DNA of 13,634 nt, taken from the NCBI GenBank assembly GCA_963827755.1, contig CAWHCQ010000025.1, positions 1 through 13,634 on the forward strand, given 5' to 3'. The notes beneath the pieces are model-generated. The model did no database searches and was not told the DNA's origin. It saw nothing but the letters and a program-made list of their open reading frames with translations. The first letter of the stretch is position 1. Each line of letters begins with the position of its first letter. This document shows, piece by piece, positions 1-13,634 of this stretch. The DNA is from an uncultured Gammaproteobacteria bacterium (GTDB lineage Bacteria > Pseudomonadota > Gammaproteobacteria > UBA9214). A program made the translations under genes and the position numbers.

Positions 1-406
1 CACTGCCAGGGATAAAAGGAAATTGACGCTGCGTTGCTGCATCTGGCGAAAGCTTTCGCCCTCCGGATAGACAAAATCCGGATCCTTCTTGTGCTGCGGA
101 TAATGTTCGGCGACCCACTTCTTTTTCTTTTTGTACAGTTTCCCGTAGTTGACCTCGTTCAGCGCAGGCGTATCGTGGATTATGTGGATACCGAGGTGCC
201 TGGCGTGAAACTTTGCTGTCTGCCTGGCTCGCTCCAGATCGCTTGAGTAGACGGCATCGAATCTGATCGCGTGTTCCTTCAAGCCGTGCTTCCACAAAAT
301 CGACATCAGCCTTCCAGCCGCTGTCACGCGGTGAATCCCCCCAACCCAGAATCTCCTCAGCCGCATTGATGATGGTCTTGTAGTGTCTTGTTAGAATCGC
401 TCGCAT
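1..406 (-). pseudogene. Histidine phosphatase (phosphoglycerate mutase-like) family protein; apparent single-base frameshift near 281-282; runs off the left edge of the window
   Basis: Absent from the ORF track; translated by hand. ATG at 406 gives MRAILTRHYKTIINAAEEILGWGDSP (RH motif plus the typical T..N...GW.D.P segment). The rest of the domain (KEHAIRFDAVYSSDLERARQTA...LNEVNYG...PEGESF) is in the adjacent frame. Removing one base at 281-282 restores ...EARLKEHAIRF. Could be a real lesion or a sequencing error. Confidence 0.75.
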
Positions 407-441
407 GCAGGCAAGATAACAAGTTATGACGACAATGTAAA
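407..441 (-). promoter_or_regulatory. Putative sigma70 promoter giving a leaderless transcript for the 406 gene
   Basis: Minus strand: TTTACA (441-436), 17-nt spacer, TATCTT (418-413) preceded by TGn, then 6 nt to the ATG at 406. No Shine-Dalgarno sequence is visible. Confidence 0.4.
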
Positions 442-544
442 AACTCTTCCAGAAAAGTCATGCAAGCTGTTTATTATTATGATCATCGCAGAATTTATGC
501 CTCATCCACAGACGCGACCGCAGACAGGATCCATGCCGGTAATG

Positions 545-814
545 TCACTTCACGGATAATGACTTCTTCTTTTTCTCGCTGCTATCGTCCACCTGCCAGC
601 TGATGCGAATATTGAAGCGGTTACGATTATCTTCCTGGGTCGCGGTAACCTTGAGATCCAGCAGACCCTCGGGCCGCATGACGATCTTTTCGTCTTCATC
701 GCTAAAGGTGACCTTCCCTTTGGCAATACCGCTGCTGATGGACTTCAGAATGCCCTGAATGGATTCTCTATCCTGCAGTGACTGATGACGAAAACTTCTT
801 TTTCCGCTTCTCAT
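545..814 (-). CDS. Amphi-Trp domain protein (GAK system), about 89 aa
   Basis: Start re-assigned to the ATG at 814 (MRSGKRSFRHQSLQDRESI...), which avoids overlap with the upstream gene. Small protein with an alternating amphipathic strand ending in Trp (RFNIRISW) and a Lys-rich tail. GAK gene context supports the call. Confidence 0.85.
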   Translation of the reverse strand: MRSGKRSFRHQSLQDRESIQGILKSISSGIAKGKVTFSDEDEKIVMRPEGLLDLKVTATQEDNRNRFNIRISWQVDDSSEKKKKSLSVK

Positions 815-872
815 ATGTCCAGATCCGTTGTCAGCATTCCCTGTACAGTGTCTTGCATTCGGGAATGACGGT

Positions 873-2207
873 TTAGTGACTGAATAATGCCGGTTCAAAT
901 ATCTTGATGTAAGGATAGTCGCTACTGATACCCATCACCAGTCCTTCGGGTCTGAAGATGGTGACCGCCGCTCCCGGTCCCTCAAGCCCTTCTTTTGCCC
1001 GTGTATTGCGATCCAGCGTGGCATCGCATTCGAAATTGACAATGCCCTTTCTCAACAAGACCCGTTGCCCGTGCAGCAGGTTTCGATGCCCGTGAACAAT
1101 GGCATGCACACCATTCTTTTTGCGCAGCAGCCTGACCCCGCGACGGGTCAGGGGCATATCTACCGGACGATACTTGGTACGAATAATATTGGCCAGGGGA
1201 CCATAGTAGAAATCAAACGGGTCGCCGTGCATCTGCTTGCGGAATTTGCGGTTGACATATTTTATGCCTTTTTTACTGATCAATGCGGCCATTCGGTCAT
1301 CAAGGCCCGCATGTAAGAAAATAAAGGAACCTTCACGGTAGCCAAGCTGCATTCGCTTGTAAAACCACGCATATTCGCCCTTTGGATACAGAAACAGCTG
1401 CTGCCATTTCCTGGCAGCCGCGTACACCATGCGCAGGGAAAGCCCTGCCATCTCGCAACCCTCTTCGAAGCGTGCCATCTTCCTGTACAACCTGCTCACC
1501 TCACGCTCGATGCTTGCCTCAGGCATTCCCCATGCGGCAAGTTCAGGGAAATCCCGAAACCAGCTTTCGGGAGGATAGAGCAGTCGCCTGCATTCACGGG
1601 TATCCGGCACACCTTGCAGGGCATTCTTCCCCTGCAGGTAACGGTCACGAATCTCGGACAGAAAGGGGATCATCTTCGGCCCCATGCGGATAAAGAAATG
1701 ATCGGTTCTGGGGTCCGGTTCCATGCCGATCGTCTTTATTCCCAGCATCATGCGGATGTCATGATTACCGGCCAGTAACACCACGTCAGCGCCCCGGTTC
1801 ATCAGCATCCGGATTATATCGAGCAGTCGCAGTGTGCTTGGCCCCTTGTCAAAACAGTCTCCGCCGATGAGGAAACGCGCCTTCCGTCCGGCCCTGGTGA
1901 GCTTGAAATCCCTGTCCCGGGACCCGGTCTTTTTTACACCCCCCGAGGCAACCAGGGATGCCATGAAGGCATCGGCATCGGCATGGATATCGGAAATGAA
2001 ATACACGGTGCGTTTCGGCCACTTCCATGGTTCCTTGCCAATAGCCACGTGCATATCCCGCGCATAGGCATCACTGTGGTATCTGTCTTTTTTAACGGAA
2101 AGCAGTTTACCCAGCATCCAGACCTGGCCCTGCTCCGGGAGGTTTGCCGTGATCCAGGACTTCCCCCTGTAACGCGGGAGGTGTTTGCATGTAGTCTTCA
2201 GCTGCAT
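873..2207 (-). CDS. Calcineurin-like metallophosphoesterase (PPP/Shelph-like), about 444 aa
   Basis: Metal-binding motifs in the expected order: SDIHAD, GDCFDKG, GNHD, HAG, HGH. Start placed at the ATG at 2207, just downstream of the 2222 stop, rather than the overlapping 2282. Confidence 0.85.
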   Translation of the reverse strand: MQLKTTCKHLPRYRGKSWITANLPEQGQVWMLGKLLSVKKDRYHSDAYARDMHVAIGKEPWKWPKRTVYFISDIHADADAFMASLVASGGVKKTGSRDRDFKLTRAGRKARFLIGGDCFDKGPSTLRLLDIIRMLMNRGADVVLLAGNHDIRMMLGIKTIGMEPDPRTDHFFIRMGPKMIPFLSEIRDRYLQGKNALQGVPDTRECRRLLYPPESWFRDFPELAAWGMPEASIEREVSRLYRKMARFEEGCEMAGLSLRMVYAAARKWQQLFLYPKGEYAWFYKRMQLGYREGSFIFLHAGLDDRMAALISKKGIKYVNRKFRKQMHGDPFDFYYGPLANIIRTKYRPVDMPLTRRGVRLLRKKNGVHAIVHGHRNLLHGQRVLLRKGIVNFECDATLDRNTRAKEGLEGPGAAVTIFRPEGLVMGISSDYPYIKIFEPALFSH

Positions 2208-2221
2208 GATCCGTTGCCAGG

Positions 2222-2926
2222 CTAGTCTGTGTAAACGCCGCTGACCGAACGCACCTTCCACTCCCCGTCGATATGGCGCCATTGTCCCCCGGGAAGATAC
2301 TCGAGCATGACCGGCCGGCAGTGGTACATGCTGAGCTGCCCGAGTTGTTCAATCGACAGCACGCCAAGATGGCAGGCCGCATGACGAAAGGCGGCACCAT
2401 GCCCGATGAAAATCTTTAGCCTGTCATGGTCGGCGTCTTGCGTGATGGCCGCCATCGATCCGGACAGGTGAGCAGCTACCCGCGCACCGGCCTCCAGCAG
2501 GGATTCGGCGCCCTGCAACGGCAGGCGGTAATGACTGTCCGCCTTCCAGCCGGCAGGCGGCGCGGAAAAACGCGGGTCCTGCTGCAGGATGGCCTCGATC
2601 TGTGTTGTGGCGAGATTGGCCAGGCAGCCGACGCCTCTTTCAGCCAGTTCGTCGTAACTGTCGACAGGCGGCCTGGACGGGGTCAATTGTGCAAGCTCAT
2701 CGGCAAAAATCACTGCCGTTTGCCAGGCGCGCAGCATGCGCGATGAGTCAATCGCAGGCACCAGGCACCAGCCGTTGCGGACGATCATTTCATGCAGGGC
2801 CTGCGCACCCGCCTGCGCCCGGGCCTCTCCTTCGCCGGTGAGCGGCCAGGGTTGGTGGGCACTGGGAGTATCCGGTGACTGGTGATAGTCGCCATGTCGA
2901 ACCAGCGCTGCGATCAGTCTCCCCAT
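2222..2926 (-). CDS. Histidine phosphatase family protein, 234 aa
   Basis: LVRHG catalytic motif, SSRMLRAWQTA, LAER, GAES and a C-terminal GHG. Confidence 0.9.
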   Translation of the reverse strand: MGRLIAALVRHGDYHQSPDTPSAHQPWPLTGEGEARAQAGAQALHEMIVRNGWCLVPAIDSSRMLRAWQTAVIFADELAQLTPSRPPVDSYDELAERGVGCLANLATTQIEAILQQDPRFSAPPAGWKADSHYRLPLQGAESLLEAGARVAAHLSGSMAAITQDADHDRLKIFIGHGAAFRHAACHLGVLSIEQLGQLSMYHCRPVMLEYLPGGQWRHIDGEWKVRSVSGVYTD

Positions 2927-2929
2927 GCG

Positions 2930-3895
2930 TCAGAGCATGGCTGCCAGTTTTTCTACCAGTGGCCCGAGTTCCGGCTGTTTCAGCCGGCTGGCCGCTTTTT
3001 TCGCGCTCAACCACTGGCGCCCGCGGTGACTTTCCTCCCATTCATCATCTGCCAGGAGACCAGTGACCCTCATGGGATAGACGGCGACGCTGCAGGTGGC
3101 CCCCCATTTCTCGCAGGTATAGCTGCCGAGGGCATCTTCCGCAACCTCGCCTTCGATGCCTGCTTCCTCCAGCGCCTCCTGCGCGGCCGATGCCTGGGGA
3201 GAAAGCCCCGGTTCCTGGATGCCTTTCGGAACGACGAGGTGATTTTTTTTGCTCGACGCAATGACCAGTATTTCCGTTTTGCCGTCGCGCACGCGGTAAG
3301 GGATCACGGATGACTGGGTGTAGTAGTAGGCGGGCCGGTCACGCAGTTCCTTGCCGTCCGGTGACGGGTAAGGAAATTTCTCCGGCAGGGTTGCGGGATG
3401 AGTCAGGGAAACAAGACGGGCGCACCCGGCAATCAATGTACGCCAGTCTGCCTGCATCTGCAGCCTGGCCAGCGTTGCTGTCGGCATCAGTTTGCCATCG
3501 TCGGACAATGGAATATCTTCGTTCGCCAGCCAGACGAGCAAGTCTTCCAGACCCGGGTTATGGCCCACGAGCATCACCCGTGACGTATCCTGCGGACAGT
3601 CCGCGAGCACCGCGAGCAGTTCATCGAGCCCTGCCGCATAGATGCGCTCGTCCTGCACGATCCCCGCATCGCTGTAACCCATGGCCTTGCAGACCTTTTG
3701 GGCAGTGACCAGCGCACGCTCCGCCGGTGATGTAATAATCAGGTCAGGTATTGTTTTCTGCTGCGCGAGCCAAACCCCGACACGCTGGGCAGCACGTTTG
3801 CCACGATCCTTCAGCGGACGATGAAAATCATCAAGGCCGGTACTCCAGTCGGACTTGCCGTGGCGCAGCAGCAAAAGTTCACGTGTCATGATCAT
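2930..3895 (-). CDS. SixA-like histidine phosphatase fused to a C-terminal Nudix hydrolase (Ap6A/DIPP-like), 321 aa
   Basis: N-domain: LLRHGKS, D..RPL..RG, TSPAERALVTA, VGHNPG, PTA (SixA pattern). C-domain: ILVIASS...VVPKGIQEPGLSPQASAAQEALEEAGI (variant Nudix box) and WEESHRGRQW. AGGA RBS upstream of 3895. Confidence 0.88.
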   Translation of the reverse strand: MIMTRELLLLRHGKSDWSTGLDDFHRPLKDRGKRAAQRVGVWLAQQKTIPDLIITSPAERALVTAQKVCKAMGYSDAGIVQDERIYAAGLDELLAVLADCPQDTSRVMLVGHNPGLEDLLVWLANEDIPLSDDGKLMPTATLARLQMQADWRTLIAGCARLVSLTHPATLPEKFPYPSPDGKELRDRPAYYYTQSSVIPYRVRDGKTEILVIASSKKNHLVVPKGIQEPGLSPQASAAQEALEEAGIEGEVAEDALGSYTCEKWGATCSVAVYPMRVTGLLADDEWEESHRGRQWLSAKKAASRLKQPELGPLVEKLAAML

Positions 3896-3911
3896 TTAAG
3901 TTCCTGTTGTC

Positions 3912-4076
3912 GGGTCAGACCAAAATGGCACCTGCTTAAGAGGTGTTATCAATAAAAAAACACCCGATTGGCCACGGAAGCACACGGAATGACACGGAAT
4001 AAAAATACATTAATAGAATTGTTTCCGTGTGCTTCCGTGGCAGGATATTTGAATAAGTACCATTAGGGTCAGACCA
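3912..4076. repeat. REP/MITE-like intergenic element with nested inverted repeats
   Basis: Perfect 19-bp inverted repeat GCCACGGAAGCACACGGAA (3971-3989 / 4023-4041) around an AT-rich spacer. Three CACGGAA units at 10-bp period (3973, 3983, 3993). The 11-mer GGGTCAGACCA occurs at both ends (3912-3922, 4066-4076), and the ends also form a 15/19 imperfect terminal inverted repeat. Confidence 0.7.
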
Positions 4077-5172
4077 GTACCTCATGCAAACAGCGATCCG
4101 CCATGGCGGAAAAATCAACCCGCCCCCTGGCGACGTAGACGGGAATGGTCTCGAGTGCCTCCAGGTAGACCGCCTCGTCGAAGACTTCCGTATCCTGCTG
4201 GAAGGTGCCGTCCGGGTGCTGGTAGAACGGACCGGGTGATTTCATCAGGGCGTCGAGCAGGTCAGGGTTGAGCGCCGGGTCCACCCGCTCAACCTGCAGT
4301 TCCATATCACTGTCACGCTGCCAGTCCAGTATCAGGAATGCCGACAGCGGGGCCTCCGCCATGATCCGCCCGGGTCCGTAGACCCTGTCGATATGTACAT
4401 CGTATTTTTCCTCGAGCGCCCACAGCTCCGCGCCCGGCAGCTGCAGCAGGGCCTTGCGCTGTTTTGCAGGAATCAGGCTGTGCAGCCTTTTATTGTGGAC
4501 AATGGTGCCTGGATTGATGCGCGGCAATTTCGGTATGCCGCGCGCCTCGACCCGGCCGGAACCGGCATGCATGAACAAACGATCATTGGTCAGGTAGGAC
4601 ACCTCGTCATTGTCGAGCATATGCAGCATCAGGGTAGACTTCCCGCCGCCGGAAAACCCGGCAATCCCGAGTCCCTTGCCCTGGTAGACGAGCCCCGCGG
4701 CATGGCAGATCAGCCAGCCCCGGTTTTGCAGCCAGTTCATGTACTGGGAATTGATGAAGTTGATTACCTGGTTGTCATATTTCCTGCAGGGTCCGGCGGC
4801 GATGCGGCGATGCTCGCTCTGCAGGAATACCATGCCGGTGCGCACCTTGCGGACCAGGCGTCCACCCGGCAGGTCCACGTAGGAATCCTTGCGGCCGGTC
4901 TTGCCCGGTTCGCGTTTCCAGTCGATGAACTCTACATCAAGTTCCGGCGCATCGCGTTCGATGGCAATGATGTCGATGTCGGGGGTGGTGGCCTCGCTTG
5001 TGACGTGCGAGAAATAATCGGCAAGACCTGTCAGCAGTTCCGGGGAATTGGAGCGCACCCTGAGTACGCATTCGCCGGGTGCAAGATAGAGTTCGTCTGC
5101 GCACAGGGGTGCCTGCTCCTGTAATTCAGCCACGGCAGCATCCACAGTAAAGTCCATCGTCATTGTCTCCAT
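4069..5172 (-). CDS. HprK-related kinase B (GAK system P-loop kinase), up to 367 aa
   Basis: HAAGL...GIAGFSGGGKST Walker A followed by YLTNDR, the HprK/PEPCK-like pattern. Lies directly downstream of the ATP-grasp gene (3-nt gap). The start could be 5163 or 5157 (GGAG upstream). Confidence 0.88.
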   Translation of the reverse strand: METMTMDFTVDAAVAELQEQAPLCADELYLAPGECVLRVRSNSPELLTGLADYFSHVTSEATTPDIDIIAIERDAPELDVEFIDWKREPGKTGRKDSYVDLPGGRLVRKVRTGMVFLQSEHRRIAAGPCRKYDNQVINFINSQYMNWLQNRGWLICHAAGLVYQGKGLGIAGFSGGGKSTLMLHMLDNDEVSYLTNDRLFMHAGSGRVEARGIPKLPRINPGTIVHNKRLHSLIPAKQRKALLQLPGAELWALEEKYDVHIDRVYGPGRIMAEAPLSAFLILDWQRDSDMELQVERVDPALNPDLLDALMKSPGPFYQHPDGTFQQDTEVFDEAVYLEALETIPVYVARGRVDFSAMADRCLHEVLV

Positions 5173-5175
5173 TTC

Positions 5176-6066
5176 TCATGCGCTTAGTTGACGCAGCACA
5201 TGTTCGACATACAAACCGGCGGCATCGATTCCGATACCTTCGAGGGCGCCGCGAAACCCCCCAAAGGCGGACACCTCGAAAACGATTGGCCCGCTTTTCG
5301 TTTCGGCGACATCGACCGTGGTGAAGTCCATGGCAAACAACTCCTGGGCACGCCGGGCCAGCTCTATCACGGTATCCGGCGGCGTATGCGCTTCATACCG
5401 GCCACCACTGTGTATGGTCGTGTTCCAGGCGGCACCTTTCGAGACCCTGGCATAACTGCCCAGATATTCACCCGCGAGGAACACCATCCCCAGGTCCCGG
5501 CCCGGCAAGTCGATTTTCTGCTGGATATACATCACCGGGTTCTCCGCCCGAAAGGCGCGAATCTCACGCTCGACCCCGGCCGGGTCGCTGGCGGAATCGA
5601 TCACGCACATGCCGCGTGCCTTGGTGGAATAGAGCGGCTTGAACACGGCACTGCCAAAATCCTGCACGGCCGCCAGCGCCACGCCGGCATTCTCGGTGAC
5701 ACGGGTCGCCGGCATCGGGATGCCGGCGTTGCGCAGCGTCACCGTGCAACTCAGACGGTCAATCAGGCGCAGCATATTCTCCGCCCGGCTGAAGACGCGG
5801 ACCCCGGCCTGCTCGGCGACGCGCAGCAGCTCCAGGCGGTCCAGCGTGGCGGGACTGTAACTGGCGCTGATCTTCTTGATGATCAGCGCATCCAGCCGGC
5901 ACAAATCCATGTCCTCAAAAACCAGGCGCTGCTTTTCCAGGTCGAGACTGACGTCAGCCATATCGATCACCAGCCGCTGACCGGTCTTTTTCTCAACGGC
6001 GTCGGCCAGCGTCTCCGTGGACCACTTCCCCGGTATGCCGACAACACCGATTCTGTATTCAGCCAA
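5176..6066 (-). CDS. GAK system ATP-grasp enzyme (RimK/CofF/LysX-like), about 296 aa
   Basis: GIPMPAT, VFKPLYSTKARG, YIQQKI, GRDL, WNTT, VDVAET and FEVSAFGG form a RimK-like ATP-grasp layout. Probable TTG start at 6066 with GGGAG RBS, overlapping the upstream stop. Confidence 0.9.
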   Translation of the reverse strand: MAEYRIGVVGIPGKWSTETLADAVEKKTGQRLVIDMADVSLDLEKQRLVFEDMDLCRLDALIIKKISASYSPATLDRLELLRVAEQAGVRVFSRAENMLRLIDRLSCTVTLRNAGIPMPATRVTENAGVALAAVQDFGSAVFKPLYSTKARGMCVIDSASDPAGVEREIRAFRAENPVMYIQQKIDLPGRDLGMVFLAGEYLGSYARVSKGAAWNTTIHSGGRYEAHTPPDTVIELARRAQELFAMDFTTVDVAETKSGPIVFEVSAFGGFRGALEGIGIDAAGLYVEHVLRQLSA

Positions 6067-7699
6067 TGAATATCTCCCTGACCGGCACACGGAACGAGTG
6101 CGGATCCTTCAGGTCTGCCGCCAGCACCTGCTCGAGCAGGTAACGTGCACGCAGGAACATGGCGCGCGCCAGTGACTTGTCGAGTATAAACCGCGTGGAT
6201 GTGGCAAACGAGCGCGCCAGTCCCAGGGCGAGGCGCAGCTCGAAAGTCCTGTCACCGGATTTCCTCGCAAAGTCCGCCGCAAACCGGTAGAAATCCCGCG
6301 TCAGCAGCATGATGCGTCGTCGCAGTGGTGCGTCGAAAATCTGCAAACGGTAATTGGAGACCATGAAAACCGATACATCCTGGACATAGTCCATGTAGCG
6401 CGAACGATGCAGATCAATGAAGTTGATCTTCTTTTCCAGCGGATCGTAGATGATATTGTCCACGTTGAAATCGCCGTGGATATAGACTGAAAACGGCGCC
6501 CTGATCCCGGACTCGAGGCGATGCACCCGCTTCAGCAGTGCACCGAAGGACGGCACGGATGTACCACAGATGCGGCAGTCATCCTGGCGAAACTCCGGGT
6601 GGATGGTATACACCTCTTCCAGTCGCTTTGACAGCTGGCGCATGTATGCAGCGGAAACCGGTGTTGCGGTACGCGTCTCGCGCCATACTTTCCCGAGGGT
6701 GCGTTGCAGCTGCTTCCGGGTCTCCCTGAGCAGGCGGGTCGGTTCGTGCAGCAGTATCTGCTCGAATGTCAGCCCGGCCAGATGCTCTATCAATAATGAG
6801 GCGGACTGTCCGCGTTTATTGTAGGAAAGAATCCTGGGCGCCAGGCCCGGGAATTTCTCCTGCCAGCTCTTCAGGCCGCGACGCTCCTCGCGCAACTTGC
6901 GCTTCTTGCCGTCCTTGTAGATGGCCACATAACCGGCATCTTCCTGCCCGCTCGCACTGATGGCGGAAATGCCGCTGCCGGAACGTGTTTCTGCTATTTG
7001 CTCGGCCACCAGGCCTGAAGCCTTGTGTGCCGTGTCCAGCTGTTCCATTGAAGCACGCAGGGAATGGTAGCGGTCAATGTTGATCGGCTGACCCAGGTTG
7101 GCGGATATGATGGTCTCGCTGATATTCAGCATGGCATCCCCCATCTGTTCGATGCCGTGCACCAGGAACAGCCCTGCCACCAGGTCTTCCGTATGTTTCC
7201 TGCGCTTGAGTCCCGTGGTGTACTTTTTCACCAGCTTTTGGCTGGACTTGTCCAGCCGTGTCTTGATTGCGCCGATCCTGAGCGCCAGCCGGGTGTCGTT
7301 TCGACGGATTGCCCGTTCAATCCGGTCGATCCCCCGAGTGATCCTGTCCAGCATGGAGATACAGGTGCCTGCGCCAGGGCAACGTCTGTTATGCAGCTGA
7401 TCCAGTTGCCGAATAGATTCACGGCACAGGCCGGTGATACGTTCAAGCTCTGTCGCAATGGATTCAATCACACGGAGTGAGGCGGCATCTGTACCTGATT
7501 CAACCGCCTTGATGGCCTGGACGTGGCAGCTGTCGTGTATCCGCAGCATGAGATTATAGGCATAACCACTGCGGTCAAGGATATGCCGGGCAACACTTGC
7601 CGAGGGGGCATCAAGATAGGCCTGCAGGCTGGAGACCTGGGATCCGACCTCGGCGACCAGGAAACGCAGGTTGTTGCGTATATTCTTGGGGATTTTCAT
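6059..7699 (-). CDS. PhoU-like domain fused to an APH/choline-kinase-fold phosphotransferase, 546 aa
   Basis: Helical N-terminal ~200 aa with two PhoU-like repeats (ELERITG; IEQMGDAMLNISE). C-terminal kinase motifs IYKDG, HGDFNVDN and FIDL. TAATG stop/start coupling to the upstream Nudix gene. Confidence 0.82.
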   Translation of the reverse strand: MKIPKNIRNNLRFLVAEVGSQVSSLQAYLDAPSASVARHILDRSGYAYNLMLRIHDSCHVQAIKAVESGTDAASLRVIESIATELERITGLCRESIRQLDQLHNRRCPGAGTCISMLDRITRGIDRIERAIRRNDTRLALRIGAIKTRLDKSSQKLVKKYTTGLKRRKHTEDLVAGLFLVHGIEQMGDAMLNISETIISANLGQPINIDRYHSLRASMEQLDTAHKASGLVAEQIAETRSGSGISAISASGQEDAGYVAIYKDGKKRKLREERRGLKSWQEKFPGLAPRILSYNKRGQSASLLIEHLAGLTFEQILLHEPTRLLRETRKQLQRTLGKVWRETRTATPVSAAYMRQLSKRLEEVYTIHPEFRQDDCRICGTSVPSFGALLKRVHRLESGIRAPFSVYIHGDFNVDNIIYDPLEKKINFIDLHRSRYMDYVQDVSVFMVSNYRLQIFDAPLRRRIMLLTRDFYRFAADFARKSGDRTFELRLALGLARSFATSTRFILDKSLARAMFLRARYLLEQVLAADLKDPHSFRVPVREIFIG

Positions 7700-8172
7700 T
7701 ACCAGTCGATGGTCCCGAGGTAGACGCTGCCGGCCGTCGCAGCGGGCTCCGCCAGGTACGGCGCCAGCGACCGCGGGTATAGCGGCATACCCGCAAGCTC
7801 GTCCAGCCTGGCCCAGACCACCTCGACCTGGTGCTTGTCGGGGTGGTGGCCGTTTCTGGGCGCATAGTCATCGGGAACCCTGCACGCGAACAGAAACTCG
7901 ACCAGGTGACGCCTGCTGAGGGGGTCTGTGTCGCGCGGCTTGAAATAGTCAGCCACATAGACAAGATCACGGATTTCCACGCGGGTGCCGATTTCCTCCA
8001 CGCATTCACGCATGAGCGCCTCTTCAAGGGTTTCGCCGATATCCTGGCCACCTCCGGGCAGTGCAAACCGCTCACCCTTTTCGTAGCCGTCCTTGCGCAG
8101 CAACAGGATGTTCTCGCCTTGCAGGATCAATGCGCGGGCAGTATTGCGTATCGGGGGTATAATCGATTCCAT
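7699..8172 (-). CDS. Nudix hydrolase, 157 aa
   Basis: Canonical Nudix box GGQDIGETLEEALMRECVEEIG (GX5EX7REUXEEXG). Confidence 0.92.
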   Translation of the reverse strand: MESIIPPIRNTARALILQGENILLLRKDGYEKGERFALPGGGQDIGETLEEALMRECVEEIGTRVEIRDLVYVADYFKPRDTDPLSRRHLVEFLFACRVPDDYAPRNGHHPDKHQVEVVWARLDELAGMPLYPRSLAPYLAEPAATAGSVYLGTIDW

Positions 8173-8208
8173 TGGCTTACTGTAGCGGTTACCTTATTGT
8201 AGTACCCA

Positions 8209-8240
8209 ATCATACCAGTCAAGCGACAGGTTTATGATAG
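8209..8240 (-). promoter_or_regulatory. Pho-box-like site plus extended -10 element upstream of the Nudix-PhoU/kinase operon
   Basis: Minus strand 8240-8223 reads CTATCATAAACCTGTCGC, a 15/18 match to the PhoB-type box CTGTCATAAAACTGTCAC. TGgTATGAT follows (-10 at 8214-8209). Box-to--10 spacing is 8 nt versus about 10 in E. coli phoA/pstS. Confidence 0.5.
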
Positions 8241-8302
8241 CAGTCTTTAGAAGACGGACTAACCCGGAATCCTGTTTGATACAGGTTCGCAACCGACCTT
8301 GA

Positions 8303-9526
8303 ATGAACTTGACGGACCTGCCTGTGCCAGCACATAAACCGATCAGAATCACCCGCAGCGTGCAGCTGCCCGACCGGGTGCGGCTCAGCCGCTACCTGAA
8401 GGCGCCCGAACTGGGACCACGCATTTTGTTTTTCAGCGGCGGCACCGCCCTCACCGCTACCAGCCGTCATCTCAAACGCTACACGCACAATTCCATACAC
8501 CTGGTCACGCCCTTTGATTCCGGCGGCAGCTCGGCCAAGCTGCGCCGGGCCTTCTCCATGCCGTCGATTGGCGACCTCCGCAGCCGGCTGGTAGCCCTCG
8601 CTGATGAAAACGTTACCGGGCACCCGGAAGTTTACCGCTTATTCACCTATCGCTTTCCCGAAAATCAGCCGGCCAGTGAACTCTTGGCAAGACTTGACCT
8701 GATGATCAAGGGCAAGGAGCCACTGGTGGCGGCGATCTCCAACCCCATGCGCCGGCTCATCCGCAACCAGCTGGGCTATTTCCGCGAGGCCATGCCGGAT
8801 GATTTCGATCTGCGCGGCGCCAGCACCGGCAACCTGATTCTCGCCGGCGGCTATCTGAATAACCACAAGCACCTGGATCCGATCATTTTCCTGTTCTCGA
8901 AACTGGTCAACGTGCAGGGCACGGTGCTCGCCGTGGTCAATGACAACCTGCACCTGGCGGCAGAGCTGGAAGACGGCAGTTGCGTGACCGGCCAGCATCG
9001 ACTGACCGGCAAGGAAGTTGCGCCGCTGCAGTCGCCTGTCAGCCGGCTGTTCCTGTCCAGTCAGGTCGACAGGCCTGTACCCGCAAAGGCAGAAATGCGC
9101 AAAAAGTACCGCCGGCTGATACAGCAGGCGGAACTCATCTGCTACCCTCCCGGCAGCTTCTATACAAGCCTGGTGGCCAGCCTGTTGCCGGGGGGCGTCG
9201 GCTCGGCCATTGCCGGGACCGATTGCCCGAAAGTCTACATACCCAACCTCGGCCATGACCCGGAACAAATCGGCATGACCCTGGACAGTTCCGTAGCAAC
9301 CCTGCTCGATTACCTGCGCGCCGATAACCCGGACAAGTGCCCCGGCGAAAAACTGCTGAACTTTGTTCTCATGGACAGCAAACGGGGCAAATACCTGTCA
9401 CCGATATCAGCACCTGCCTTGCAGAAGCAGGGCATCCGGGTCATCGATACCCGGCTGATCAGCCGGCAAAGCGCCCCGTATTATGATCCGGAACTGCTGG
9501 TTTCTGCGTTGCTGTCACTGACCTGA
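8303..9526 (+). CDS. GAK system CofD-like protein (CofD/YvcK/UPF0052 family), about 407 aa
   Basis: FSGGTAL, VTPFDSGGSS, SIGDLR, GNLIL, G.H.LTGKE, PPGSFYTSL and KVYIPN are CofD/YvcK family motifs. Divergent from the GAK operon. The exact start is uncertain. Confidence 0.9.
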   Translation: MNLTDLPVPAHKPIRITRSVQLPDRVRLSRYLKAPELGPRILFFSGGTALTATSRHLKRYTHNSIHLVTPFDSGGSSAKLRRAFSMPSIGDLRSRLVALADENVTGHPEVYRLFTYRFPENQPASELLARLDLMIKGKEPLVAAISNPMRRLIRNQLGYFREAMPDDFDLRGASTGNLILAGGYLNNHKHLDPIIFLFSKLVNVQGTVLAVVNDNLHLAAELEDGSCVTGQHRLTGKEVAPLQSPVSRLFLSSQVDRPVPAKAEMRKKYRRLIQQAELICYPPGSFYTSLVASLLPGGVGSAIAGTDCPKVYIPNLGHDPEQIGMTLDSSVATLLDYLRADNPDKCPGEKLLNFVLMDSKRGKYLSPISAPALQKQGIRVIDTRLISRQSAPYYDPELLVSALLSLT

Positions 9527-9528
9527 GG

Positions 9529-10782
9529 TCAGCTGTCGTGGCTGTCCGGGCCACGGTGAGGGAGTTGTATGCTGACCTTGTCGATGCTGCGATCCGTCGC
9601 CCTGACGATCGTGACATCCAGGTTGTCGATAGTGAATTCTTCTTTTTCGCTGGGAATATATTCCGTATAGCCGAGGATCCATAAACTTACTGTATCGGTC
9701 GGTTTGCCGGGAAGATCCACATCAAAGAAATGTTCCACCACCCGCAGTTCAGTCGAGCCTTCCACGATGATTTCAGTTCCGGAAATACTGTCGACCTCAA
9801 GTGGTCCGACATCACTTTCATCATAGATCTCACCAACCAGTTCCTCGAGCAGGTCTTCAAGTGTAATGATACCGCGCACATCACCGTATTCATCCACGAC
9901 AATCGCAAACACCCGGTTACGCCGCCTGAATGTGGCAAACAGGTCATCGATCACCTGGTACTGAGATACAAACAAAGGATTGTGGGCAATATCAGCCAGT
10001 CGTTCTTCCGCCTGACCGTTCGCTGAAGCCTTCAACAGGTCCCTCAGATACAGCACCTTCGTAAGGTTATCCTTCTGTCCTTCATACAGGGGGATGCGGG
10101 AATAGTGCGCCTGCACAACTTTCGGCAACGCCTCGGCTACCGTAAGAGAGGCTTTCAGGGAAAATATCCTGCCCTTGGGTGTCATGACATCCCGGACCTT
10201 CAGGTCATTGAAGGCAAATACCCGCTCGATAATTTTCCTTTCATGATGTTCGATGGCGCCTTCATCAACACCGTATCCCAGCATACCGATCAATTCAGAC
10301 TCGGTAACCGTGGGGTCGCTCTCGCCGCCCGTGAGGCGATGAATCCAGCTGGTAAAATGGCTGAAGAACCATACCAGGGGATAGATCAGGCGCATGAATG
10401 CCAGCAAGGGATAGGCGATGAACAGGGAAATGCGTTCGGAATAACGTGTCGCCAGACTCTTGGGGGTGATTTCACCGAACACCAGAATAAAAAATGTAAG
10501 CAGGCCAACGGCAATTCCCGGTCCGGCACTGCCAAACTCCCGTGTCGCAATGACAGTGGCCAGCGCAGAGGCCGCTATATTGACGAGGTTATTTCCAATC
10601 AGTATCGTCGTAAGCATGGCGGATGGATCTTTTTTCAGCTTATAAAGAGCTGATGCGCCGTGGCGACCTTCATTGACAAGTCCTTCGACCCGCGCCAGGG
10701 ACAGGGTCACCAGGGCCGTCTCGGAACCGGAGAACACACCCGAGAGAATCAGCAATACCAGCAATGCTGCAAATTCGTTCAT
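9529..10782 (-). CDS. CNNM/CorB (HlyC/CorC/TlyC 'hemolysin' family) Mg2+ transporter-type protein: DUF21 + CBS pair + CorC_HlyC, 417 aa
   Basis: FSGSETAL, TILIGNNLVN, FGEITPKS, VRDVMTP, YSRIPLY, AIVVDEYG, TLEDLLEELVGEIYDE. Confidence 0.93.
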   Translation of the reverse strand: MNEFAALLVLLILSGVFSGSETALVTLSLARVEGLVNEGRHGASALYKLKKDPSAMLTTILIGNNLVNIAASALATVIATREFGSAGPGIAVGLLTFFILVFGEITPKSLATRYSERISLFIAYPLLAFMRLIYPLVWFFSHFTSWIHRLTGGESDPTVTESELIGMLGYGVDEGAIEHHERKIIERVFAFNDLKVRDVMTPKGRIFSLKASLTVAEALPKVVQAHYSRIPLYEGQKDNLTKVLYLRDLLKASANGQAEERLADIAHNPLFVSQYQVIDDLFATFRRRNRVFAIVVDEYGDVRGIITLEDLLEELVGEIYDESDVGPLEVDSISGTEIIVEGSTELRVVEHFFDVDLPGKPTDTVSLWILGYTEYIPSEKEEFTIDNLDVTIVRATDRSIDKVSIQLPHRGPDSHDS

Positions 10783-10794
10783 CGCTTGCCAATA

Positions 10795-11359
10795 AACCTA
10801 CCAGTGTCACGGTGCCGCGTAAACAGGTTCCTTGATGACGCGTCGCCGCAATTCCTGCACCATGTCAGCGAGCGGCAAATCCAGGGGCAGAAAGAAAATA
10901 TTTGACCTTGGCGTCATCAGTTCCGCGACCGTCTTACGGCCGAAATCGAACGGGTGCGATAACTCTCGCAAAGAACTCGATCGGACGACTCTGCAGGCTG
11001 GCAAAGGCGACATTGTTGCGGATTGCCAGCGTCTTTGGTGTAATCTCGCCGAACAGCAGCAGAATCGGTACCATGATGAACAGGTTCACGAATTTGTTCT
11101 CGGCCCCGAGCAACTGGATAACGATTGCCGCTGAAATCACGGATGCGGCCACATTGACGAATTCATTACGCGGATCCAGGCGCCTTGGCTGGCTCAGCAG
11201 GCGTTCAATCAGGTTCAGGTTCGGATCGTCATCACGGCGCATCTGCTCCAGCTGGATCTTGTTCAGCGAGAACAGGCTGGTTTCTGAACTGGAAAAAAAC
11301 GCGGAGAACCCCATCAGGACGATAAACAGCGCTACTTCAATCCACAGTGTTATATCCAC
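10795..11359 (-). pseudogene. Eroded second CNNM/CorB paralog (DUF21 plus a fragment of the first CBS domain)
   Basis: GTG at 11359 with GAGGA RBS. FFSSSETSL and FGEITPKT are intact, but the TILIG segment before NEFVN is lost. A frameshifting deletion near 10950 joins ...APVR directly to FDFGRKTVAELMTPRS. Small indels follow near 10845-10795, and the C-terminal half is absent. Confidence 0.8.
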
Positions 11360-11532
11360 CCGGTGTTTTCCTCATCTTTATGATTCTTCTGATCGATGTT
11401 GCAAACCTGTTTGCAGTAGTGCCACAATGGTAAAACATTCTGCTGAAACATAACAATATTTCAGACTTGTGGCCTCATTAATATTTATGAGAATGGATTC
11501 CGGGATCTGTCGGTGTAGCCGTGTTGGTCGCT

Positions 11533-11576
11533 CGCAAGCGCTTGCAGAGGTATATTCCCTGCAAGGGACGCTTGCG
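11533..11576 (+). other. GC-rich hairpin immediately upstream of the CHAD gene
   Basis: CGCAAGCG-CTTGCAG (11533-11547) pairs with CTGCAAG-gga-CGCTTGCG (11559-11576), giving 15 bp with a 3-nt bulge. No U-tract on either side. Confidence 0.4.
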
Positions 11577-11587
11577 GTAATGACTGC

Positions 11588-13147
11588 GTGAGTACGTCAC
11601 TGGAATTTCTGCTCCCTTCCCCGCTCGGCGCCGACGAGTTGCTTGCCGGGGTAAAGCAGGCGTTCAGGCACCAGGCCGATGCCCCCCGCATGCTGCAACG
11701 CACCTGGTATGACAGCTTTGACTGGCGGCTGTACTCGGGCAATTCCATACTCGAGGATAGCCGTGACGGCGACGGGCACATGCTTGTATGGCGGACGCTG
11801 AAAGACAAGCGCGCTGATGCCCGGCTGAAAGTGCAGAAGGTGCCCAGGTTTGCCCGGGACCTGCCAAAGGGCCACTTTCGCGAGCGGCTTGAAAAGCTGC
11901 TGGAAATGCGCGAACTCGCCGTGAAAGTCAGGGTCCGTTCCAGGATCAATACCCTGCGCATTCTCAACCTGGACGACAAAACCGTCGCCTACCTGGTCGT
12001 CGAGGAGAGCACCCTGCCGCGACAGCAAGGCACTCGTTCCACCCGGCTGGGTGACCGCGCGATCGTCATCCCGGTCAGGGGCTACCAAAAACCCTGCAAG
12101 CAAGTGACCTGCCTTCTCGAGGAGCTGGGCCTGACCATGGCAGGCGATGACATCATGCTGGTAGCCCTTTCCGCTATCGGGGTAACACCGTGCAACTACT
12201 CCAGCAAACTGGACCTGACACTGGATCCCGCCATGCGCGCGGACCAGGCAAGCAAGCTCATCCTGCACCGGCTGCTCGATATCATGTTGCAAAACGAGGC
12301 CGGCACGCGCGCGGGTAGAGACACTGAATTCCTGCATGATTTCCGGGTCGCGATCCGCCGCACCCGTTCTGCCCTGACCCAGATCAAGAAGGTATTCCCG
12401 AAACGGACAGTCGCCCGCTACAAAAAAGAATTTGCCTGGTTGGGGCTGATGACCGGCCCCAGCCGTGACCTGGATGTTTATTTACTGAATTTTGACGAAT
12501 ACCGTGCCAGTTTGCCCGCGTCCATGCAGGCCGATATCGAAGCACTGCGCGATTTCCTCATCAGGCACCAGCAGAGTGAACTCAAGGCCCTGGTCAAGGC
12601 ACTGGATTCAGCACGCTATCGGCGGCTGATCAAGAGCTGGCGCAGCTTCCTGGAGCAGCCGGTCAATGAGCGCACGACGCTGAAAAATGCAGGCCGACCC
12701 GTCATCAATGTTGCCAGCAAGCGGATCTGGAGTGTCTACCGGCTTATCCTCAGGGAAGGTGCGGCCATTAAACCGCAGACCCCGGCAGAAGCATTGCATG
12801 AACTGCGCAAGACCGGCAAGAAACTGCGTTACCTGATGGAGTTTTTCCAGAGCCTGTATCCTGCGGCCGAAATCAGTAAACTGATCAGGGCGTTGAAGTT
12901 GCTACAGGACAACCTGGGTAATTTCCAGGATTACGAGGTTCAGGTGATAACCCTGAAAAAATTCAGCCACCAGATGGTAGCCGAAGGCGGGGTTTCAGCA
13001 GATACGCTCCTGGCCATGGGCATGCTTATCGACGGCCTGGAAAGACGCCAGCATCAGGCACGGTGGGAGTTTGCCGGGCGCTTCGCGAATTTCTCCCTGC
13101 TGGAAAATCAGGAGCAGTTCCGGAAACTGTTCGCATCCAGCCATTAG
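11588..13147 (+). CDS. CHAD-domain protein (polyphosphate-binding) with an N-terminal CYTH/TTM-like region, 519 aa
   Basis: CHAD motifs EFLHDFRVAIRRTRSAL, RDLDV, LHELRKTGKKLRY and LQDNLGNFQD. The N-terminal ~200 aa includes RTWYDSFDWRL, resembling the CYTH Y.DT.D..L segment. Confidence 0.9.
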   Translation: MSTSLEFLLPSPLGADELLAGVKQAFRHQADAPRMLQRTWYDSFDWRLYSGNSILEDSRDGDGHMLVWRTLKDKRADARLKVQKVPRFARDLPKGHFRERLEKLLEMRELAVKVRVRSRINTLRILNLDDKTVAYLVVEESTLPRQQGTRSTRLGDRAIVIPVRGYQKPCKQVTCLLEELGLTMAGDDIMLVALSAIGVTPCNYSSKLDLTLDPAMRADQASKLILHRLLDIMLQNEAGTRAGRDTEFLHDFRVAIRRTRSALTQIKKVFPKRTVARYKKEFAWLGLMTGPSRDLDVYLLNFDEYRASLPASMQADIEALRDFLIRHQQSELKALVKALDSARYRRLIKSWRSFLEQPVNERTTLKNAGRPVINVASKRIWSVYRLILREGAAIKPQTPAEALHELRKTGKKLRYLMEFFQSLYPAAEISKLIRALKLLQDNLGNFQDYEVQVITLKKFSHQMVAEGGVSADTLLAMGMLIDGLERRQHQARWEFAGRFANFSLLENQEQFRKLFASSH

Positions 13148-13163
13148 CCGGGGAACCACGCGC

Positions 13164-13634
13164 TTGAAAGTAATCGCCACATACAACATCAAGGGGGGTG
13201 TCGGGAAAACCGCCACCGCCGTCAATCTTGCCTGGCTTGCGGCCCGCGAAGGTGCGCCCACGCTTGTCTGGGATCTCGATCCACAGGGCGCCGCAAGCTA
13301 CTATTACCGTATCAAGCCGAAGATCAAGGGCGGCGGCAAACGCCTGGTCCAGGGCAAACGTGACCTCGATGATTTTATCCGCGGCACCGACTATGCACTC
13401 CTCGATCTCCTGCCGGCGGATTTTTCCTACCGGAACATGGACCTTTTCCTGGACCAGACGAAAAACCCGCTACGCCAGATACACAAACTGCTAAAGCCCT
13501 TCAGGAAAGAATACTATTACGTATTCCTGGACTGTCCACCGAGTATTTCACTGGTATCGGAAAACATCTTCGAGGCGGCCAGCGCGGTGCTGGTGCCGAC
13601 CATTCCAACCACCCTGTCATTGCGTACCCATGAA
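13164..13634 (+). CDS. ParA/Soj-family ATPase (partial; runs off the right edge of the window)
   Basis: Absent from the ORF track; translated by hand. TTG at 13164 gives MKVIATYNIKGGVGKT (deviant Walker A), WDLDPQG, LLPAD, FLDCPP (Walker B) and VLVPTIP. The frame is open to the window end and starts 16 nt after the CHAD stop. Confidence 0.92.
   Translation, partial: MKVIATYNIKGGVGKTATAVNLAWLAAREGAPTLVWDLDPQGAASYYYRIKPKIKGGGKRLVQGKRDLDDFIRGTDYALLDLLPADFSYRNMDLFLDQTKNPLRQIHKLLKPFRKEYYYVFLDCPPSISLVSENIFEAASAVLVPTIPTTLSLRTHE

Follow-up and report, generated by a model that had tools for sequence, protein, structure and literature searches.

A conserved GAK operon with a PhoU-like kinase fusion and recurrent phosphate-related neighbours in an uncultured gammaproteobacterium

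The GAK system, a name that we take to denote the protein families TIGR04354–TIGR04357 of NCBIfam/TIGRFAMs, is encoded on a 13,634-bp stretch of DNA from an uncultured Gammaproteobacteria bacterium (GenBank assembly GCA_963827755.1, contig CAWHCQ010000025.1). This stretch, here called the window, spans all of C25, one of 52 contigs in a 2.85-Mb assembly (completeness 91.8%, contamination 5.4%). The closest relatives of the genome are gammaproteobacterial metagenome bins, often labelled Ectothiorhodospiraceae or Sedimenticolaceae. In the window, the GAK system is complete and of its phosphatase-rich, proteobacterial form; the system probably belongs to phosphate homeostasis.

The operon is encoded on the minus strand. 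Its first gene encodes a stand-alone Nudix hydrolase (7699–8172; Pfam NUDIX, 63.9 bits). It is followed by a 546-amino-acid fusion of a PhoU-like domain (residues ~7–206) and an APH/choline-kinase-type kinase (residues ~232–464), here called PhoU-APH (6059–7699; Pfam PhoU 28 bits, APH 31.9 bits), by the GAK ATP-grasp ligase of the RimK/LysX/MptN type (5176–6090), and, 4 bases from the ligase gene, by HprK-related kinase B (HprK-B; 4069–5172), which is a P-loop kinase with two domains and the PEPCK/HprK fold. Next come a fusion of an N-terminal SixA-like histidine phosphatase with a C-terminal Nudix domain (SixA-Nudix; 2930–3895; Pfam His_Phos_1 and NUDIX), histidine phosphatase A (branch 1, CobC/dPGM-like; 2222–2926; His_Phos_1, 55.9 bits), a metallophosphoesterase (a 469-amino-acid open reading frame [ORF] at 873–2282; Pfam Metallophos, 36.3 bits), and, last in the operon, the amphi-Trp protein of 89 amino acids (545–814, from a conserved ATG at 814). 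A divergent promoter region (8173–8302) separates the operon from the gene for the GAK CofD-like protein on the plus strand (8303–9526), beyond which lie an intact CNNM/CorC gene, a CNNM fragment, a CHAD gene and a ParA gene, in that order.

The four GAK families that a sequence-only reading of this DNA had recognized all lie in this one locus, each above its NCBIfam cut-off: TIGR04354 (amphi-Trp) scores 66.8 bits versus a cut-off of 31, TIGR04355 (HprK_rel_B) 354.6 versus 200, TIGR04356 (grasp_GAK) 448.2 versus 300, and TIGR04357 (CofD_rel_GAK) 555.1 versus 340. The other domains on its list are present too, with Pfam matches over the gathering scores (CHAD, 202.9 bits versus 25.6), and catalytic motifs were found in every enzyme of the window. 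The XXXCH-domain protein (TIGR04358) gave no match in the same genome, and the control search for it matched in no genome.

Among the 401 genomes of a phylum sample, grasp_GAK was found above cut-off in 13; its relatives occur in at least 571 species-level genomes, cultured marine bacteria included. Cultured carriers are Roseibium aggregatum IAM 12614, Thalassospira australica NP3b2, Marinobacterium lutimaris DSM 22012 and Gilvimarinus xylanilyticus HB14, among others. The window was compared with 92 related loci, 12 from the phylum sample and the best 80 of the at least 571 relatives, and gene presence was counted in the 63 full-flank loci that have at least 7 kb on each side of the ATP-grasp gene. 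The cassette gene order recurs across the 92 related loci, so the gene grouping is not a matter of chance. PhoU-APH, the ATP-grasp ligase and HprK-B are each present in 63/63 full-flank loci and amphi-Trp in 60/63, followed by histidine phosphatase A and the metallophosphoesterase (55/63 each), SixA-Nudix (47/63), the stand-alone Nudix (43/63) and the CofD-like protein (32/63). PhoU-APH adjoins the ATP-grasp ligase in all 63; the order of the two is inverted in L069. By these counts, the system has a constant core (PhoU-APH, ATP-grasp, HprK-B and amphi-Trp), a lineage-typical shell of hydrolases, and an optional CofD-like protein. The conserved operon exceeds its database label: PhoU-APH is as constant as the named GAK parts, and the proteobacterial form adds two Nudix domains, two or three histidine phosphatases and a metallophosphoesterase. 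The CofD-like protein, in turn, loses the place of a defining part that it had been given. Besides its presence in just 32/63 loci, it was located elsewhere in only two of five GAK genomes that lack it nearby and was not found by search in the other three, one of which is 100% complete.

A rearranged lineage (L046, L048, L053 and L058) carries the genes in two blocks, one of PhoU-APH, ATP-grasp, histidine phosphatase and metallophosphoesterase, the other of HprK-B, SixA-Nudix and amphi-Trp. An extra Nudix gene of 185 amino acids lies between the metallophosphoesterase and HprK-B genes of this lineage (8677–9231 in L058, and in five other loci). A cassette ATP-grasp 73% identical to the query consensus was also seen in L061, labelled Ilumatobacteraceae (an actinobacterium); this cassette could be a product of mis-binning or of gene transfer.

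The PhoU domain of PhoU-APH scores 28 bits versus a Pfam gathering score of 23.5, and full-length PhoU models align over residues 7–206 at scores far under their equivalog cut-offs; the domain is therefore PhoU-like, not PhoU itself. The kinase part has the catalytic loop HGDFNVDN at residue 408 and the metal-binding motif FID at residue 427. The pattern H.D....N is conserved in 87/87 relatives, and the relatives of the APH domain found by profile search are small-molecule kinases. The ATP-grasp ligase matches the MptN model with 138 bits, the best named model after grasp_GAK, and CofF is matched as well; its PDB profile matches include RimK (1e-19), LysX of the LysX/ArgX type (2e-17) and an alpha-L-glutamate ligase (1e-17). 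HprK-B has the Walker A motif GFSGGGKS, and its AlphaFold2 (AF2) model has a mean predicted local distance difference test (pLDDT) score of 94.8. In VIA-align, residues 6–367 of the model align with ATP-PEPCK (Z 16.7, 299 residues, root-mean-square deviation [rmsd] 4.2 Å), and residues 153–367 align with the HprK/P catalytic domain (2qmh; Z 15.1, rmsd 2.1 Å, 129 residues), with similar results for 1kkl and 1ko7. By sequence, HprK-B matched no Pfam family at E ≤0.01 and no PDB chain at E ≤0.1, HprK/P included. Its modelled structure places HprK-B in the PEPCK/HprK superfamily; its substrate could equally be a protein or a small molecule.

Histidine phosphatase A has RHG and GHG motifs and profile matches to CobC and dPGM. 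The SixA half of SixA-Nudix matches SixA structures at E 2e-12 and TIGR00249 at 50.8 bits, below the cut-off. In the fused Nudix domain, E240, E243, E244 and G246 are conserved in 67/67; the top solved relatives are DIPP1, DIPP2 and DIPP3 at modest E-values of 9e-7 to 1e-5, followed by Ap4A/Ap6A hydrolases. The yeast DIPP-type enzymes Ddp1 and Aps1 hydrolyse inositol pyrophosphates and polyphosphate (polyP) in the available parts of PMC8064635 and PMC11323792, the former of which gives dinucleoside polyphosphates as further substrates. The stand-alone Nudix has a canonical Nudix box, and its PDB neighbours are generic MutT/NUDT1 types. The metallophosphoesterase carries the motifs DIHAD, GDCFDKG, GNHD and HGH (GNH[DE] in 74/74 relatives) and has weak matches to ApaH, the Pnkp phosphatase, PdeM and PDB 4j6o; its real start may lie downstream of the ORF start. 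The nearest PDB structures to the CofD-like protein are of the YvcK-type UPF0052 family (E 6e-25). It was rejected as an equivalog of the F420 enzyme CofD (2-phospho-L-lactate transferase): no model other than that of the Pfam superfamily and the one specific to GAK was matched.

To name neighbouring genes, all ORFs from the window and its relatives (93 loci) were clustered blind to function, and recurrent clusters were then named via Pfam; counts of inorganic phosphate (Pi) and polyP neighbours are limited to the fetched flanks of each locus. After the nine cassette families, the commonest neighbours are ParA (18/93), CHAD (17/93) and CNNM (15/93), followed by an Na/Pi cotransporter with a PhoU domain (14/93), PstS (11/93), a third histidine phosphatase and a universal stress protein (Usp; 10/93 each), PhoU (7/93), PPK1 (6/93), Pit (5/93) and DUF47 (4/93). 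A lack of enrichment, which by the sequence-only reading itself would speak against a phosphate role, was thus not what was found: Pi/polyP families recur most after the cassette itself. At least one Pi/polyP gene lies in the fetched flanks of 28/93 loci (17/63 with full flanks), and in L072 and L075 a pstS..pstB-phoU series continues directly into the operon. On the HprK-B tree, with short-flank negatives treated as unknown, a minimum of 10 changes is needed for the Pi/polyP-neighbour state and of 6 for CHAD adjacency; with all negatives counted, FastTree gave 13 and 8 changes. CHAD is present in 182 of the 401 phylum-sample genomes, a tally that takes in one unpublished genome (G383) used in no other claim, and is mostly single copy. 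Chance adjacency is therefore ~0.6% per genome, and six independent cases in 30–40 lineages have a p value near 1e-7. These recurrent neighbours, together with the CHAD-ParA linkage below, make a link to phosphate likely. Of the phosphate/polyP interpretation in the sequence-only reading, the enriched neighbourhood is upheld and strengthened by the PhoU-like domain within the core kinase in 63/63 loci; the defining role assigned to the CofD-like protein is not, and neither is a polyP granule that the enzymes would themselves make, alter, position and take apart.

In the nearest kin of the window (L030–L039), the arrangement is PhoU-PstS..ParA-CHAD-CNNM-CofD, then the cassette, then histidine phosphatase-Na/Pi cotransporter-Usp-PPK1 or Pit. 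This arrangement indicates that C25 is a slice of a larger phosphate/polyphosphate gene island. The window's own genome, assembled to 92% completeness, yielded neither PPK1 nor PPX; one PPK2 is on C22 (2100–2771), and two Na/Pi-cotransporter-PhoU genes lie at contig ends (C8, 362–2236; C27, 216–2090). Because the genes at the C8 and C27 ends flank the cassette in relatives, the island was probably broken by assembly, and this slicing may account for the missing PPK1 and PPX.

CHAD-ParA lies beside the cassette in 17/93 loci, in at least seven different places or orientations, and ParA follows CHAD in 17/17 CHAD-bearing loci. Three lineages have the pair on the same strand and in line with the cassette, as CHAD-ParA-PhoU-APH (L022), metallophosphoesterase-x-CHAD-ParA-amphi-Trp (L024) and amphi-Trp-CHAD-ParA (L088). 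Among the best 30 CHAD loci of the phylum sample (1.5-kb flanks), ParA follows CHAD in 2 besides the window's, a SixA-like gene adjoins in 5, CNNM in 3 and PPK1 in 2. Two genomes that lack GAK encode CHAD-ParA-SixA: G159 once (L142; C1, 7008–9930) and G312 twice (L143, C70, 6100–8640; L144, C183, 5166–10114), with PstB-PhoU nearby each time in G312 and one of its copies reading PPK1-CHAD-ParA-SixA. The triads in these genomes argue for CHAD-ParA-SixA as a polyP-linked module in its own right, with the SixA family common to module and cassette. CHAD domains bind polyP (PMC6537752, in the part available). How polyP granules are placed is undefined according to the accessible text of PMC13556221, which describes the placement in Synechococcus elongatus as independent of that organism's sole ParA.

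In the window, the two-domain CHAD protein (11588–13147, plus strand; CHAD at residues 225–453) is followed by a ParA/MinD-type ATPase (13071–13634, plus strand; AAA_31/CbiA type; Pfam AAA_31 103.6 bits, ParA_partition 69 bits) with the deviant Walker A motif KGGxGK[ST], as KGGVGKT at residue 41. The ParA that the sequence-only reading had listed is thus present, with its gene running past the contig end after residue 188. The pair resembles CHAD "phosin" proteins and ParA/MinD cargo positioners (McdAB) in that a CHAD domain well over the Pfam cut-off precedes a deviant-Walker-A ParA, and in that its conservation does not depend on the presence of GAK; it differs in that granule placement in S. 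elongatus does not need the only ParA there (PMC13556221, in the same accessible text). CHAD-ParA-SixA is a candidate for a dedicated module of polyP-granule positioning or maintenance. The N-terminal 222 residues of the CHAD protein had no Pfam match, CYTH included, and a language model placed 24 of the 30 nearest Atlas clusters in CYTH (score 0.94); this N-terminus is probably CYTH-like, and is offered as a lead only.

The intact CNNM/CorC-type Mg2+/Co2+ transport protein (9529–10782, minus strand; Pfam CNNM 190.9, CBS 58.5 and CorC_HlyC 53.6 bits) belongs to a family that adjoins the cassette in 15/93 loci. In L110, L111 and L126, CNNM/CorC lies directly beside CHAD, and the GAK cassette is elsewhere or absent, which suggests a recurrent pairing of Mg2+-transport and polyP genes. 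Of the CNNM genes earlier listed for the window, this is the one intact copy. The second (10934–11359, minus strand; 141 amino acids; Pfam CNNM 97.7 bits over profile positions 2–135 of 181) is only an N-terminal fragment, in which ~136 residues from the start of the transmembrane domain remain and likeness to the intact paralogue stops at residue 136. Two CNNM genes were seen at the corresponding place in L034 and L035. An ORF with no family match (10902–11453, plus strand) lies antisense to the fragment. Three histidine phosphatase domains are likewise present as first described, the third of them (1–442, minus strand; His_Phos_1, 63.6 bits on the frame at 1–366) being frameshifted near 270–285 and severed by the contig end, where its 3′ end is lost. 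A tblastn search with the intact third histidine phosphatase of L035 matched two frames in the window (442–269 and 282–4). The intact gene lies next after amphi-Trp in 10/93 loci, and the split copy could be a real pseudogene or a contig-edge assembly error. Rfam matched no RNA element in the window, and promoter and terminator scans gave results near chance. A role in anti-phage defence was rejected; PADLOC gave only weak generic matches to Nudix and ParA.

The longest amphi-Trp ORF begins at a TTG at 898, and relatives begin at the methionine of the ATG at 814. The family consists of stand-alone proteins of ~90 amino acids (997 representatives at 50% identity). The best 150 of the 997 are all 59–152 amino acids long, and no fused forms were found among 8,000 longer candidates, which is weak evidence. 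F8, S12, G33 and W73 are each conserved in 135/139 family representatives and H10 in 115/139; toward the C-terminus, an L-x-[IV] pair is conserved too. The AF2 model (pLDDT 86.5) has one helix and four strands. Foldseek found no match in the PDB at E ≤0.001, VIA-align against 48,161 chains reached a best Z of just 2.6, a PDB profile search gave nothing under E 0.02, and an Atlas search gave no usable match beyond the protein's own Pfam family. In the portion of PMC13490349 available, a proteomics paper, an amphi-Trp domain protein of Dissulfuribacter thermophilus ranks in the top 20 by abundance in one growth condition, which hints at a stoichiometric or structural rather than catalytic role for some family members.

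Cassette promoters were screened for Pho-box-like sites with a consensus that we take to be the E. coli-type Pho box. The divergent promoter region of the window has an 18-mer of this kind, with 3 mismatches, at 8223–8240 on the minus strand, where 0.95 such matches are expected across the whole window; the nearest relatives retain −35- and −10-like hexamers in this region. Sites with 1–2 mismatches are present in 5/83 cassette promoters, including those of L018, L097, L017 and L095, and CHAD, which heads the L022 operon, has a site with 1 mismatch in front of it. As positive controls, the pstS promoters of L040, L072 and L094 matched with 2 mismatches. In the clade of the window, even pstS promoters fail to match the consensus, so the test is powerless there. 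The sites are suggestive of Pho control in some lineages.

For the function of the cassette, we tentatively favour a write/erase cycle, gated by Pi and driven by ATP, on the amphi-Trp protein. The PhoU-like domain would gate the APH-type kinase by phosphate status, and the two kinases (APH-type and PEPCK/HprK-fold) and the RimK/LysX-type ligase would between them carry out successive ATP-dependent steps on one acceptor. That acceptor would be the 89-amino-acid amphi-Trp protein, whose nearly invariant Ser12, in the FxHESLQD motif, would let it serve as phospho-acceptor or carrier. The DIPP-like Nudix-SixA fusion, the histidine phosphatases and the ApaH/PPP-like metallophosphoesterase would remove the modification, and the state of amphi-Trp would signal phosphate or energy status to polyP granules (through CHAD-ParA) and to transport. 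Within such a cycle, Ser12 would be the prime site, and HprK-B with SixA-Nudix the nearest writer/eraser pair. Amphi-Trp as the acceptor is favoured by the joint movement of HprK-B, SixA-Nudix and amphi-Trp as a block and by the conservation of Ser12 (135/139), by the superposition of the modelled C-terminal domain of HprK-B on the HprK/P catalytic domain and, by analogy, by the ligase's kin LysX/ArgX, which load a small carrier protein. A link from SixA to polyP would be in keeping with the CHAD-ParA-SixA triads of GAK-less genomes, one of them behind PPK1.

Several observations weigh against this cycle or against the phosphate link beneath it. Amphi-Trp has no conserved C-terminal acid, unlike the substrates of RimK or LysX. 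The two-domain match of HprK-B to PEPCK, the two Nudix domains, the CofD-like protein and the APH-type kinase would suit a free small-molecule substrate as well or better. About 70% of the loci (65/93) have no Pi/polyP gene in the fetched flanks, and CHAD is present anywhere in only 7 of the 13 GAK genomes of the phylum sample, near the background of ~45%. The locus set is biased toward the window's kin, since 80 loci are the closest of at least 571. The Pho-box-like site of the window has 3 mismatches and is not retained in the nearest relatives; the overall excess of such sites is not significant (9/83 cassette promoters versus 25/322 other intergenic regions), and the positional test (13/83 versus 10/322) used a positional window picked after the data were seen. 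No paper was found under "GAK system" or "HprK-related kinase B" in a search that left supplementary transcriptome and proteome tables outside, and a literature search on how carriers (Thalassospira, Roseibium, Marinobacterium) respond to phosphate yielded nothing relevant.

A close rival, possible though on the unlikely side, is a pathway to a free, phosphate-rich metabolite or signal made under Pi control. The PEPCK-like and APH-type kinases would yield phosphorylated intermediates, the CofD-like protein would form a phosphodiester from a nucleotide-activated donor, the ATP-grasp ligase would add glutamate in the way that the tail of F420 or sarcinapterin is made, the hydrolases would trim or recycle intermediates, and amphi-Trp would serve only as regulator or chaperone. 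Such a pathway would accommodate the alignment of HprK-B with ATP-PEPCK over residues 6–367 (Z 16.7), the 138-bit MptN match and the CofF match of the ligase, the presence of a CofD family member, the small-molecule substrates of APH relatives, and the CobC and dPGM matches of the histidine phosphatase. Nudix enzymes act on nucleoside-diphosphate-X compounds, which also fits. However, half of the loci lack the CofD-like protein and searches of five genomes failed to find it in three, Pfam and NCBIfam scans detected no nucleotidyltransferase among the cassette proteins, and amphi-Trp is nearly universal and travels with HprK-B.

The view taken in the sequence-only reading, that the locus acts directly on polyP or nucleoside polyphosphates, appears unlikely. 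Here the hydrolases would cut polyP, ApnA or pnA, the kinases and ligase would use or extend chains on the granule, CHAD would anchor them and ParA would space the granules. The CHAD-ParA linkage in at least seven arrangements, the PPK1-CHAD-ParA-SixA operon of G312 and the weak ApaH matches of the metallophosphoesterase favour it, as do the DIPPs and Ap4A/Ap6A hydrolases nearest to the fused Nudix domain, given that yeast Ddp1 and Aps1 cut polyP too (PMC8064635 and PMC11323792, in the parts available). Yet the DIPP E-values are modest (~1e-6), no kinase or ligase of the cassette resembles PPK1, PPK2 or PPX, PPK1 and PPX were not found in the genome's own 92%-complete assembly, 6 of the 13 GAK genomes have no CHAD and 76/93 loci have no CHAD-ParA. 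A cassette whose function is unrelated to phosphate, such as maturation of a peptide-like product, and which merely hitch-hikes in this neighbourhood, is very improbable. Related HprK-A kinases presumably have such a maturation role in lasso-peptide clusters. In favour of hitch-hiking, the loci with no Pi/polyP neighbour form the majority noted above, and much of the phosphate signal comes from a single clade of 13 rows around the window. Against these stand the PhoU-like domain fused to a core enzyme in 63/63 loci and the at least 10 changes that the Pi-gene linkage needs on the tree; furthermore, amphi-Trp is predicted to be a folded domain rather than a leader-core peptide, and Pfam and NCBIfam scans detected no protease, transporter or PqqD-like gene in the cassette.

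The proposed write/erase cycle on amphi-Trp has parts in common with known systems. As in HPr kinase/phosphorylase and HPr, a P-loop catalytic domain that superposes on that of HprK/P (Z 15.1, rmsd 2.1 Å) is encoded beside a small partner with a nearly invariant Ser. HprK-B differs in having no HprK/P sequence match and in its PEPCK-like N-terminal domain and two-domain build, and amphi-Trp has no detectable likeness to HPr. The reverse reaction of HprK/P is driven by Pi and pyrophosphate, and a reversal of this kind would suit a Pi-sensing switch. The LysW/LysX amino-group carrier-protein pathway and RimK with ribosomal protein S6 also resemble the window's set, in which a RimK/LysX-type ATP-grasp shares its locus with kinases and with a small protein that has an acidic tail; amphi-Trp differs in fold and in having no conserved C-terminal Glu, and the set includes no reductase or aminotransferase.

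The eukaryotic inositol-pyrophosphate/SPX toolkit comprises the PPIP5K ATP-grasp kinase with its histidine phosphatase domain, a DIPP Nudix, an SPX sensor and a polyP polymerase with a TTM domain. The window likewise has an ATP-grasp, a histidine phosphatase, a DIPP-like Nudix and a helical phosphate-sensor domain fused to an enzyme, with a putative CYTH/TTM-like-CHAD neighbour and with Pi transporters and polyP genes beside. The likeness is one of analogy only: the ATP-grasp of the window falls in the glutamate-ligase branch, PhoU is unrelated to SPX, and no inositol chemistry is indicated. That the cassette is a convergent bacterial counterpart of this circuit is a long shot. If true, the PhoU-gated kinase, the ATP-grasp and the PEPCK/HprK-fold kinase would load energy-rich phosphate groups onto a metabolite or a dedicated small protein, the DIPP-like Nudix, histidine phosphatases and metallophosphoesterase would discharge it, and the charge would set polyP storage, CHAD-ParA granule placement and Pi/Mg2+ transport.

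Bacterial sensing of internal phosphate and control of polyP beyond PhoR/PhoB/PhoU and PPK/PPX are poorly understood. The GAK locus offers a conserved operon with intact motifs, a phosphate-sensor domain inside its core kinase, and repeated coupling to genes for polyP granules, Pi uptake and Mg2+ transport. Its cultured marine carriers make deletion feasible, and the CHAD-ParA(-SixA) module provides a concrete candidate where the mechanism of polyP-granule placement is still undefined.

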